A DNA stretch of 64,000 bases from Phage NC-B, in the sequence record MK310183; one strand, 5' to 3'. The notes beneath the pieces were generated by a model. That model searched no databases and was not told the DNA's origin. It saw nothing but the letters and a program-made list of their open reading frames with translations. Below are positions 55,039 through 58,250 of this stretch, piece after piece. Positions within the stretch are counted from its first letter, which is position 1. Each line of letters opens with the position of its first letter. The position numbers were made by a program, and so were the translations under genes.

Positions 55039-57072
55039 TTAGTGTTTACCTTTACAGTAATCTGAATTACAGATCACCCTGTTTTCTTTGTTCAGTGAGC
55101 AAGTTTCTGCATCACGCCACGGAATTTGTTTATAACAGACTGCACAAAACCCAATTGAAGTCCAGAGGGCTTTTGTAAACTCAGCTGTTCGTTGTCCATC
55201 GTAACTGACAACTGTTTTTCGGAGAGAGGTTGACTTTTCTGGAAATGTCTCCGCTTTCTCAGCGGGTACCTCCTTTGGGGCATTCTTTGGACCATAAACA
55301 GAGATGGCATAGGTATCACCACCACGTTTTTCCAAATACGAATTAGGAACATCTGCAAGTGTGATATCCCCTGAACGTTTTGCTGAGCTAACCATTACAA
55401 TCATACGGCTAAGCATACGTTCATCAACACGAACAGCTACTTCAGGACGACGTGGGTTGGTTGTGTCCACTGCTTTAGTCCAAATATAACCCTCAGACAG
55501 CGTAACATTCTTTACTTTGTCTTTGATTTCTTTGGAGCAGATATAACAAACGTCTTCACCACGAAGTTTACTCATTTCGTTGTCAAACTCGAAATCAGTC
55601 TTGACTTCACCACAGATAGCACATACACCCAAAGGCACATCTTCTTCCTCTTCAGAGGTTTTAGATAACGCTTCGAAGCATTCTGGATGCCAGTATGCCT
55701 GATAAGCAAACACAGCCTTACGAGCATCTTTCCAGTCAATGTGCTTATCACAACCACCACAGTCACCATGAGAGTGAGACTCCCAGAACTTACGAGTGAC
55801 TTCTACACCATTCTTAGTGATGAAGGAGTCCTCTGCATCAAAAGGGATATCATCATCAAAATCAGCAGTAGTGCTTTGAGGCTCCTTATCTGTAGCATCA
55901 ACAAACAGCCCTGAAGTTAGTACGAGGCGAATCATACTGTCCACTTCGGAGATACAAGCAATCGTCCCGCGATATACTACCTTTGGGTTTTCAAGAGCCT
56001 TAAGATATTCATCTTTGGCTACGTTGTGAACATCCCCTTCGACATACTCTTGGGCTTTATCATCGTAGATGTAACCAACCATCTTACCACGATCTGTGTT
56101 GTTATAAGCATGGAACTCGTGAGGAATAATATCCACACGACCATCACGACGATAAGGAAGACCACGATCGGCAGCCAGTTTGTTCTGGTCTTCAATCGCT
56201 TTACGACGACGAATGTCTCCGCTTGTCACGCCGGGCTTGTCGTCTTTGTTTCCGTAAATGTCGCTTGTGCTGCTGCTTGATTTGTTTGTCTGTTGGTTCT
56301 GATATAGAGAGGAGTTCGAGTAATAGCCGCCCCAGCGACTCGTTATCGTAAAAACCGGAAGCTTGTGCTCCACCTCTTGAACCAGAGTCATACGACTGTT
56401 AGACACATCAAAGATATACTCAGTTCCCACTTTACACTCGAAGTGGTCATTGATACGGTTCTTATGGGACTTAGAACGCTCTAAAATCCACATAAGCATA
56501 GCTTCTTCAGAAGCCCCAAACCAATCTAAACCACAACGGGCTAGGTGGAAAGGACGCTCATCATTACGGATAATGTGAAGCGTGTTGTCTTTAGCATCAT
56601 GCCAAATCAAAGTGAATGCACCATCCAGTTTTTGGATAGTCTCTGCTGCTCCAATGGTGTTAATTGAGTGGCAGATGTTTTCACTATCAACTTCGAAACG
56701 TTTACTGTCAGGAAGGAGATCTTGATCTAACAGGGTTCCATTATGAACCAGAGTGATATCACCGTGAGTAAATGGGTGAGCGTTTCGAGCATTGACAGCC
56801 CCACGAGTGGCATGTCGGCTATGACCAACAATCCACGAAGGAGGAACTACGTAGTTCGTAAGTCCTTTGGTAATATTCTTATATTCTGTCTGGAGCATAA
56901 AAGCGTAAGAAGGAAGAGCTTCTTTGTAAGAGAAGACTTGCTTTTCACCTTTACGCTGACCAAACACACCAGTTGAGTGCTGTCCACGGAAAACACCAGC
57001 ATACAGAAGTTGGTTGAAAATATCCAAATCTGTTGAGGTCATGTTGCCGCCAGCTAATACGATACCACAAAT
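55039..57072 (-). CDS. class-II glutamine amidotransferase (Ntn-hydrolase) domain protein with Cys-rich C-terminal extension; predicted non-AUG (ATT) start
   Basis: GVFRGQHSTGVF, GHSRHATRGAVNARNAHPF, LVHNGTL match the GlmS/PurF-type GATase domain; in-frame codons just upstream of the ATG read K-I-C-G-I-V-L-A-G-G-N, i.e. the conserved (M)CGIV N-terminus, bounded by a stop two codons further up. Confidence 0.75.
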   Translation of the reverse strand: MCGIVLAGGNMTSTDLDIFNQLLYAGVFRGQHSTGVFGQRKGEKQVFSYKEALPSYAFMLQTEYKNITKGLTNYVVPPSWIVGHSRHATRGAVNARNAHPFTHGDITLVHNGTLLDQDLLPDSKRFEVDSENICHSINTIGAAETIQKLDGAFTLIWHDAKDNTLHIIRNDERPFHLARCGLDWFGASEEAMLMWILERSKSHKNRINDHFECKVGTEYIFDVSNSRMTLVQEVEHKLPVFTITSRWGGYYSNSSLYQNQQTNKSSSSTSDIYGNKDDKPGVTSGDIRRRKAIEDQNKLAADRGLPYRRDGRVDIIPHEFHAYNNTDRGKMVGYIYDDKAQEYVEGDVHNVAKDEYLKALENPKVVYRGTIACISEVDSMIRLVLTSGLFVDATDKEPQSTTADFDDDIPFDAEDSFITKNGVEVTRKFWESHSHGDCGGCDKHIDWKDARKAVFAYQAYWHPECFEALSKTSEEEEDVPLGVCAICGEVKTDFEFDNEMSKLRGEDVCYICSKEIKDKVKNVTLSEGYIWTKAVDTTNPRRPEVAVRVDERMLSRMIVMVSSAKRSGDITLADVPNSYLEKRGGDTYAISVYGPKNAPKEVPAEKAETFPEKSTSLRKTVVSYDGQRTAEFTKALWTSIGFCAVCYKQIPWRDAETCSLNKENRVICNSDYCKGKH

Positions 57073-57149
57073 TTTCTAATCCACCTGAAGGGTAAACCCT
57101 TTCATCTAATTAACCTTTAAATGCGCCCTTTATCAGAGCGCCCATTGTG

Positions 57150-58250
57150 TTACAGCAGTCGTTCTAACTGCATTTCCAGATGATCTGGAATATAACCAGT
57201 GACATTATCATCACTACTGCCTGATTCACGCATCAATGCAAACATGTGACGAATCTCACCAACCGTTGCGGTTCGTGTATTCTCAATCTGGTTAGAGTAA
57301 TGAGATAAGATTTCTTCATAGACACGGTTAGCATTACCACGAACATATCCCAAGAAACCATAGAAGTCATTCATGTCACGAAGATTAATCAAGATTTCTC
57401 CATCAGAACCTGTCTGATGTACACGAACTCGACCGACCAAAGTTACAGATCGCTCACGACAGAACAGAATATCTCGAGCAAGACGATACCCTTCAGTGAG
57501 ATCACTATCTCTTGGGGTGTAGTCTAGAGGTAGATGTTGAATCATAGGAGCGAAGCGCAGCTCATTCAACTTCTCAACATAAGCTTCATTGTCTAAATCT
57601 GCATATTCAACAGCCAGTTTCTTGAGAACCAAGAAACGATTGACCAGATTTAGCAGCTGACTCTTTTTCCACTTCGGCTCTGAGATACGGAACTCAACAG
57701 AACCAAACTGAGAGAGAGGTAACAGATTAAGGGAGGTGTACTTGTCCCAGCTATTAACAAGAGTACGGAAGAAATCTTCCCCATCTCGGTTGAACGCTGA
57801 TGAAGCATTCATAACTTGAGCTTGAACAACAGCAAAAGCTGGGCAGAAGTTACTACGGTAACGATGATATCCAGAACATTTGAACATCATCTTTTCATAG
57901 AACGTCCACCCAAGAATAACTTTCTTAAGGATATTACTATCAGCGTCCCGCATATCCATATGAACGTGAGTGGAGCAGCGCCAAGTTCCCTCGGCTCCAG
58001 AATCCTGTACCGCTTCACTCAGATTGTTAATAGCACGAAGTAATTCTTCACCGTTGTAAGGTCGTGAACAAACTAACTCACAACCATCACGAAGAGAGCC
58101 GTCTTCAGTACAAACCCACATATCGACGTCAATGTCAGTCGTACCTTCAACCTCTAACTCAATACCAACACCACACTGAAAGGCAATACTTGGATGCGGT
58201 TCAGATAAGCGAGGGTTACGGTATCCAAAAACTTGTGCTACGGTTGTCAT
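57150..58250 (-). CDS. amidoligase-like protein (glutamine-synthetase-like fold)
   Basis: GVGIELEVEG and STHVHMD motifs; sits next to the GATase and near a GGCT gene, the neighbourhood I recall being described for this family. Confidence 0.6.
   Translation of the reverse strand: MTTVAQVFGYRNPRLSEPHPSIAFQCGVGIELEVEGTTDIDVDMWVCTEDGSLRDGCELVCSRPYNGEELLRAINNLSEAVQDSGAEGTWRCSTHVHMDMRDADSNILKKVILGWTFYEKMMFKCSGYHRYRSNFCPAFAVVQAQVMNASSAFNRDGEDFFRTLVNSWDKYTSLNLLPLSQFGSVEFRISEPKWKKSQLLNLVNRFLVLKKLAVEYADLDNEAYVEKLNELRFAPMIQHLPLDYTPRDSDLTEGYRLARDILFCRERSVTLVGRVRVHQTGSDGEILINLRDMNDFYGFLGYVRGNANRVYEEILSHYSNQIENTRTATVGEIRHMFALMRESGSSDDNVTGYIPDHLEMQLERLL

Follow-up and report, generated by a model that had tools for sequence, protein, structure and literature searches.

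A predicted AUU start codon with an adjoining leader hairpin in the class-II glutamine amidotransferase gene of phiEco32-like phages

The amidotransferase locus of phage NC-B

The DNA analysed here, a stretch of 64,000 nucleotides from Phage NC-B (sequence record MK310183; hereafter the window, to which all positions refer), encodes on its minus strand a glutamine amidotransferase whose translation very probably begins at an AUU codon, preceded by a Shine-Dalgarno (SD) sequence and a small hairpin. At 93% identity, the region matches Suseptimavirus and Kuravirus coliphages, which belong to the phiEco32-like C3 podophages of the subfamily Gordonclarkvirinae, and the gene forms part of a phiEco32-type cluster that comprises a COOH-NH2 ligase type 2, an Amidoligase_2 protein, the amidotransferase, a small DUF7195 gene and an ATP-grasp enzyme.

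The canonical open reading frame (ORF) returned for this gene by an ORF lister spans 55039..57042 and encodes 667 aa. Read on the minus strand, the codons of the start region are TAG, AAA, ATT, TGT, GGT ATC GTA TTA GCT GGC GGC AAC and ATG, giving, together with the residues that follow, stop-K-I-C-G-I-V-L-A-G-G-N-M-T-S-T-D. The initial annotation had described this region correctly: a product started at the ATG would begin MTSTD and lack Cys1, the in-frame codons upstream of it read I-C-G-I-V-L-A-G-G-N, a TAG two codons above the ATT bounds the frame, and an AGGTGG SD is separated from the ATT by an 8-nt spacer (ATTAGAAA). Counted from the ATT, the ORF has 677 codons and its product, with the N-terminus (M)CGIVLAGGN, consists of an N-terminal class-II glutaminase domain of the N-terminal nucleophile (Ntn) type and, C-terminal to it, about 430 aa that contain CxxC pairs. 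A mini-ORF (MKGFTLQVD-stop), in all likelihood an incidental one, has its ATG at 57105-57103 and overlaps both the hairpin and the SD. The features are listed in Table 1.

Table 1. Features of the amidotransferase gene and its leader in the window.
Feature	Position	Strand	Evidence or remarks
Glutamine amidotransferase gene from ATT, 677 codons + stop	55039..57072	-	Translation; Pfam GATase_6/7/4; phiEco32 gp83 orthologue
ATT, proposed initiation codon (AUU)	57070..57072	-	Same in 96/98 phage records; ATG, TTG or ATC in relatives
TGT, codon of the predicted catalytic nucleophile Cys1	57067..57069	-	Cys and Gly invariant in 40 homologues; AlphaFold2 (AF2) model matches glutaminase domains
SD AGGTGG	57081..57086	-	Anti-SD duplex -5.9 kcal/mol; kept in all leaders of this type
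Hairpin AAGGG-TTTA-CCCTT	57088..57101	-	Ends 16 nt before ATT and 1 nt before SD
In-frame TAG, two codons before ATT, closing the frame	57076..57078	-	TAT in relatives L031-L034
In-frame mini-ORF ATG AAA GGG TTT ACC CTT CAG GTG GAT TAG (MKGFTLQVD-stop)	57076..57105	-	
55-nt invariant block: leader, ATT and first 2.7 codons	57065..57119	-	8 Gordonclarkvirinae sequences, several genera
Downstream ATG, codon 11	57040..57042	-	Start in many records; product without Cys1; Leu in phiEco32 and EP335
Ntn glutaminase domain, Cys1 to about residue 240	56350..57069	-	Motifs GHSRHATRG, VHNG, EVDSE

Enzyme fold and the N-terminal cysteine

Pfam assigns class-II amidotransferase domains (GATase_6/7/4) to the protein, and the AF2 model of residues 1-240 was obtained with a mean predicted local distance difference test (pLDDT) score of 92.4 and a predicted template modelling (pTM) score of 0.91. 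In a Foldseek search this model matched GlmS (1xff; E=1.4e-12, template modelling (TM) score 0.67), PurF (1gph, 1ao0), asparagine synthetase (ASNS) and EgtC, and it has the four-layer alpha-beta-beta-alpha Ntn fold of the GlmS/PurF/AsnB glutaminase domains. The motifs GHSRHAT, VHNG and EVDSE are invariant in the family and align with HTRWAT, VHNG and ETDTE of GlmS, and the motif counterparts of the GlmS residues for glutamine binding and the oxyanion hole (Arg73, Asn98-Gly99 and Asp123) are intact. The GlmS, PurF, asparagine synthetase and EgtC families all use an N-terminal Cys, and the specificity of methionine aminopeptidase (MetAP) allows the removal of an initiator Met that is followed by Cys. 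In the 40 homologues compared Cys-Gly is invariant, and in the window the Cys codon directly follows the ATT. On the basis of the model, the N-terminal domain can be assigned with confidence to the class-II (Ntn) glutaminases that use Cys1, and glutamine hydrolysis is predicted, from the fold and the intact motifs, to depend on this residue.

Evidence for initiation at AUU

The exact 32-mer GGTTTACCCTTCAGGTGGATTAGAAAATTTGT, which covers the hairpin, SD, TAG, AAA, ATT and TGT, is found in 96 of 98 matching phage records, and the remaining two, which both belong to Aeromonas phage BUCT695, a member of another family (Grimontviridae), likewise read TAG AAA ATT TGT. CGIVLAG is invariant among homologues as distant as 54% identity. 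Because of these exact records and this invariance, the ATT is attributable neither to a base-calling error nor to chance.

The codons between the ATT and the downstream ATG show the variation expected of coding sequence. In the Gordonclarkvirinae alignment, the variable sites that follow the 55-nt block are mainly third codon positions, beginning at the codon of Gly3, and codons 2-10 are therefore considered to be translated. The downstream Met, moreover, is not a general feature of the gene: in the Kuravirus and Nieuwekanaalvirus genomes (phiEco32, EP335) codon 11 encodes Leu (CTG/CTC). The first in-frame ATG, GTG or TTG past the ATT of phiEco32 is codon 114, located beyond GHSRHAT and at the VHNG motif, yet codons 2-113 are kept as protein (83% identity) despite this late canonical start. 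The frame is thus closed by the TAG on one side and first offers a canonical start at codon 11 in the window and at codon 114 in phiEco32 on the other, while the SD stands at a working distance from the ATT. Against 55% invariant columns outside it, the 55-nt block itself is fully invariant, a run with a naive probability of about 1e-12. Of the 32 bases around the SD only 2 differ in BUCT695, although its protein is no more than 58% identical; together, the block and the BUCT695 leader imply that the leader is either very strongly constrained or has been transferred horizontally.

Taken together, the lost downstream Met, the translated codons 2-10, the start codons of the relatives (see below) and the Ntn fold make initiation at AUU well supported, albeit in silico, in agreement with the initial annotation. 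The latter had also held AUU to be the only route to a protein starting Met-Cys-Gly-Ile-Val. This stands in so far as no canonical start yields Cys1; an upstream ATG combined with read-through of the TAG is formally possible, and was tested and rejected as described below. Proteomics of phage SU10 detected the amidotransferase protein with 9 peptides, which shows only that the protein is made (PMC4281155).

Start codons across the family

An alignment of orthologues at the ATT codon, as proposed in the initial annotation, showed ATG, TTG, ATT or ATC at this position, and nothing else across about 95 loci; at every locus read, the codon before Cys is thus one that the initiator tRNA can read. 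Among 80 IMG/VR loci, which constitute an unselected sample of the family, this codon is ATG in about 63, ATT in 12, ATC in 4 and TTG in 1, so that about 20% of the sample begins at ATT or ATC. The database homologues begin MCG in 93 of 120 cases, and the DNA was read for 13 of the 27 others: the Cys codon is preceded by ATT in P0001 (the window's own cluster), P0049 (BUCT695), L031, L033, L034 and L041, by ATC in L042, by TTG in L032 and L035-L039, and by ATG in L040, the start of which had been mis-called. An ordinary SD precedes ATG-TGT in more distant phages, which include Proteus phage P59, Cronobacter phages 009 and A24 and IMG/VR contigs. In a neighbour-joining tree the ATT/ATC genes fall in at least six places among ATG genes.

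Two further observations concern this position. The Ile-codon starts at all ATT/ATC loci (n=23) consist of 18 ATT, 5 ATC and no ATA. L064 from IMG/VR and P0048 read ATG TGC TGY GG, which would give MCCGIV with the Cys codon duplicated at the N-terminus.

A hairpin beside the ribosome-binding site

All distinct leaders were searched for a hairpin next to the SD with a stem of 4 bp or longer, 2 or more G-C pairs and a loop of 3-6 nt. Such a hairpin was present in 17 of 18 distinct ATT/ATC leaders, with stems of 4-7 bp, as compared with 3 of 48 ATG leaders (Fisher p=8e-12) and 4 of 7 TTG leaders; hairpins of at least 5 bp were found in 15/18 ATT/ATC leaders and in 0/48 ATG leaders. In shuffled leaders the hairpin occurred in 2.3 of 18, with a maximum of 6. 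The comparison is subject to the caveat that in many ATG genes an overlap with the upstream gene leaves no space for such a structure. ATT/ATC leaders also have stronger SDs (p=0.0016).

The 3' end of the stem always lies 14-16 nt ahead of the start codon, whereas its sequence is unrelated from one stem to another, with all four types of Watson-Crick pair represented at every position. Sub-clades with an identical SD and spacer (e.g. CTAGGAGATGAGAAA-ATY) have completely different stems; in L033 the stem is retained by a compensatory change (AAGAG/CTCTT), and L034 carries another hairpin, ACAAGGC-GAT-GCCTTGT, in the place of that of the window. As judged by eye on the tree, about eight hairpin-bearing ATT/ATC clades have a hairpin-less ATG gene as nearest neighbour, examples being L031/L049, L032/L052, L088/L104, L116/L120 and L014+L033/L008.

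No Rfam family scored above threshold in a scan of the leader, and the fold of the whole leader is not unusually stable (z=+1.08), only the local hairpin being of relevance. Neither the leader nor its motifs were found to recur elsewhere in the window, and a crude window-wide scan for further starts composed of a hairpin, an SD and ATT or ATC gave no excess over control codons. Separately, in most ATT/ATC leaders a stop triplet, either TAG or TGA, lies out of frame 5-7 nt ahead of the start (L041, L042, L060, L083, L088, L091, L103, L109, L115 and L116); that of the window occupies positions -6 to -4 and is in frame. This triplet could reflect shared ancestry of the spacer or be a functional feature.

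Alternative explanations

Homologues that start with MKGFTLQVDY drew attention to the possibility that translation begins at the mini-ORF ATG, reads through the TAG and yields a 12-residue MKGFTLQVD-X-KI leader that is removed autocatalytically. In favour of this route, the mini-ORF shares the reading frame of the gene, propeptides are known from Ntn enzymes, and three relatives with TAT for TAG (P0029, P0030 and P0064) have been called as MKGLALQVDYKI-CGIV, MKGFTLQVDYSL-CGIV and MKEFTLQVDYKI-CGIV. The relatives' leader DNA nevertheless led to its rejection, and it is considered very improbable. The TAG interrupts the putative propeptide frame in 96 of 98 records and in BUCT695, and no tRNA or suppressor is encoded in the window. 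Nearly every difference between leaders is non-synonymous (G>E, F>L twice, T>A, V>A, K>S) or located in the loop, and the sole synonymous change, ACC>ACT in L033, compensates GGG>GAG in the stem, as would be expected of an RNA rather than of a protein-coding sequence. L034 keeps AGGTGGATTATAAAATT (SD, spacer and ATT), but an in-frame TAG immediately before the SD leaves no leader ORF; L032 has TTG where the window has ATT; most relatives have a leaderless ATG-TGT; and the residue preceding Cys is only ever M, I or L (ATG, ATT, ATC or TTG). In the TAT relatives, finally, an AATGT motif stands 6 nt before the ATG. In the gp36 promoters of phiEco32 the transcription start is preceded, at a distance of 6-8 nt, by the motif tAATGTATAtA (PMC4281155; PMC12276001), and a gp36-type transcript in these relatives would be expected to begin at the hairpin, after the ATG, which it would exclude. 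As the leader behaves as an RNA element, the extended N-termini are regarded as gene-caller artefacts. The mini-ORF might instead be translated over its nine codons, with termination at the UAG and a restart at the AUU 3 nt further on. The geometry UAG AAA AUU matches that of the thrS-infC junction (UAA GGU AUU), and reinitiation and de novo initiation contribute about equally at infC (PMC3592434). In Gordonclarkvirinae the gene lies within a long sigma-70 early operon, so that the mini-ORF ATG is in the mRNA (PMC4281155), and an AAGG is located 8 nt ahead of it. The BUCT695 mini-ORF, however, is without an SD, L031-L033 have TAT and hence no stop, L034 lacks the mini-ORF, and inspection by eye of the other ATT/ATC leaders revealed no obvious case of an upstream ATG whose frame ends at a stop adjoining the start. 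Reinitiation is accordingly viewed as unlikely, and as possibly, at most, a local addition in this phage rather than the general mechanism of the family.

A start at the downstream ATG, with the CGIV codons as an untranslated relic and a domain that is non-catalytic or catalytic in another way, would correspond to the longest canonical ORF and to the annotation of SU7, EK010 and many other records. It is rejected as a general start by its absence from phiEco32 and EP335, where Leu replaces the Met and the next canonical start is codon 114 or 46; codons 2-10 are moreover conserved as protein with synonymous changes, and every catalytic motif for glutamine hydrolysis is intact, which renders this reading extremely improbable. 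A sequencing error or a recent inactivating ATG>ATT mutation in this isolate, to which the single-base distance between the two codons lends itself, carries practically no weight: many laboratories and several genera are represented among the 96 independent phage records with the same ATT, which occurs in BUCT695 and in metagenomic contigs as well, and the identity of 96 of the 98 records rules out an error or a pseudogene. A phage-encoded suppressor or special initiator tRNA was also considered and was discarded, as the window contains no tRNA.

Proposed mechanism of AUU initiation

The comparisons between relatives establish directly where the start codon lies. With AUU as the start codon, the AGGUGG SD 8 nt upstream would place the initiator fMet-tRNA on the AUU, the product would begin fMet-Cys-Gly-Ile-Val, and deformylase and MetAP would strip the Met and expose Cys1. 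AUU, or AUC in relatives, may be a deliberately weak start, discriminated against by initiation factor 3 (IF3), that throttles or conditions synthesis of the enzyme. Initiation at AUU in E. coli amounts to about 1/6 to 1/8 of that at AUG, and AUU is the target of IF3 autoregulation in infC (PMC3592434; PMC5499595). AUU or AUC could hold output low or make it sensitive to IF3, guanosine tetraphosphate (ppGpp) or growth state, a sensitivity that has been documented for non-AUG starts (PMC5499595; PMC3592434). The hairpin might serve as a structural helper that stacks on or insulates the SD-anti-SD helix at the 30S platform and so makes a poor codon workable; the freedom of the stem sequence argues against a sequence-specific protein operator, and the fixed position of the hairpin argues for a geometric role on the ribosome. 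Ribosomes that begin at the upstream ATG would be halted by the in-frame TAG before they could produce an inactive protein with an N-terminal extension, which fits the presence of the mini-ORF ATG in the Gordonclarkvirinae mRNA. These roles of the hairpin and of IF3 are put forward tentatively. It is conceivable, with the same reservation, that the hairpin, the SD, a spacer of 5-9 nt and AUU or AUC constitute a dedicated cis-acting module that licenses AUY initiation on bacterial ribosomes, a structure-only element long kept in this phage Ntn-amidotransferase family and exchanged against plain leaders with an SD and AUG. If so, the module would offer a naturally occurring and portable means of tuning or conditioning translation via start-codon proofreading.

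Several points weigh against AUU initiation or against the proposed part of the hairpin in it. Support for the AUU start in this gene and its orthologues consists of sequence comparison and a predicted fold, and the SU10 proteomics relied on a 563-aa gene model (63.8 kDa) that does not include the N-terminus. The whole 55-nt leader is invariant in Gordonclarkvirinae, and selection on the ATT is therefore not separable there from selection on the block. The hairpin statistics ignore kinship, as they carry no phylogenetic correction, and the ATT/ATC leaders look homologous, with the consensus GGWGGAT(T)AG...ATY. The association may thus represent one ancestral cassette that was kept, lost or transferred, which is as likely as repeated invention. 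In reporter constructs, stable hairpins just upstream of the SD can inhibit translation and weak ones stimulate it (PMC3592434).

Relation to known systems and existing annotation

The GenBank/RefSeq records of phiEco32 (an EU-series accession), SU10, LAMP and Bas87 already start the coding sequence (CDS) at the ATT, and the ATT call is therefore not new for this gene. Their orthologues, including phiEco32 gp83 (phi32_83; ABY52884.1 / YP_001671828.1), correspond to the gene described here, down to the 55-nt leader and the ATT, in contrast to most other records (SU7, EK010, EP335, ECBP2 and more), in which a truncated protein is annotated. A literature search, beyond the reach of which lay the primary papers on the phiEco32 genome and its transcription, found no paper that discusses or tests the ATT start. 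The start itself is hence a re-discovery, the interesting and testable part being the AUU/AUC pattern at the level of the family and the hairpin coupled to it.

Only 8 of 60 records listed have a CDS that covers the start region. The annotated starts, as seen in SU7 and EK010 (L001, L002), EP335 (L004), P0002 and P0006, are inconsistent and include codon 11 (667 aa), codon 59 (P0002-type, 627 aa) and codon 115 (563 aa; a cluster with 211 members); the "expected mass" of 63.8 kDa given in the SU10 proteomics matches the 563-aa truncation. Most public records of this phage group carry the enzyme without its predicted catalytic Cys, and some without half of the catalytic domain; in some metagenomic gene calls the N-terminus is spuriously extended by 12 residues. 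Errors of either kind are misleading when functions are predicted for the conserved phiEco32-type cluster, with its genes for an amidoligase, an ATP-grasp enzyme and the amidotransferase.

Bacterial genes very rarely start at AUU or AUC, the examples named for E. coli being infC, which encodes IF3, and pcnB (PMC3592434; PMC5499595). Both likewise have AUU (AUC in some infC genes) with a normal SD and a conserved non-canonical start (PMC3592434; PMC5499595), and in infC, as in the window, a stop codon is located 3 nt before the AUU. The AUU of infC is explained by IF3 autoregulation, whereas the phage product is a metabolic enzyme without a known link to an initiation factor; furthermore, in the phage family AUU/AUC is accompanied by a hairpin abutting the SD, a coupling for which no report was found for infC or pcnB. 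A full-text literature search also returned no paper on a coupling of hairpins with AUU or AUY. For ebpA of Enterococcus faecalis, a rare ATT start was predicted in silico upstream of an annotated ATG and attenuates expression; this is a bacterial pilus gene, and the argument made for its start did not involve a catalytic N-terminal residue (PMC4447247).

The B. subtilis PurF enzyme (1gph and 1ao0, both matched by the model) shares the fold and the need for a free Cys1. PurF-type enzymes of B. subtilis expose this residue by autocatalytic removal of a translated propeptide. The phage gene differs in that its frame is closed by the TAG and its leader evolves as RNA.

With about a fifth of one phage gene family apparently using AUU/AUC, nearly always with a covarying hairpin beside the ribosome-binding site, the general question of how ribosomes accept poor start codons, and why a virus would want this, becomes testable with reporters.

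Transcription signals and neighbouring features

At 57112-57117 (minus strand) the window has AAGGTT where L031, L032, L033, L014, L048 and L052 have AATGTA/AATGTT, the core of the gp36 sigma motif; the AAGGTT of Gordonclarkvirinae may be a degenerate or vestigial middle promoter. A scan of the intergenic region for sigma-70 promoters and intrinsic terminators reported none on the minus strand, its only hit being a terminator-like site on the plus strand (57261-57273). A stem-loop, GCGCTC-TGATAAA-GGGCGC (57123-57141, minus strand), lies just past the amidoligase stop codon (57152-57150), and pairing is kept by compensatory changes in its phiEco32 counterpart, GTGCCTC...GGGGCAC. With only three T after it, this stem-loop is a candidate for a weak terminator or a protector of an RNA 3' end. 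In two public records a "terminator" feature is listed under the BLAST match in this region, where the consensus scan had reported none on the minus strand.

The small DUF7195 gene follows the amidotransferase gene in 14 of the 14 related contigs for which gene tables were returned. The C-terminal two thirds of the amidotransferase (residues ~245-677; 55039-56340, minus strand) match no Pfam family; the CxxC...CxxC pairs conserved in this part (e.g. CGGC...HPEC, CAIC...CYIC and CAVC...CNSDYC) resemble zinc ribbons.

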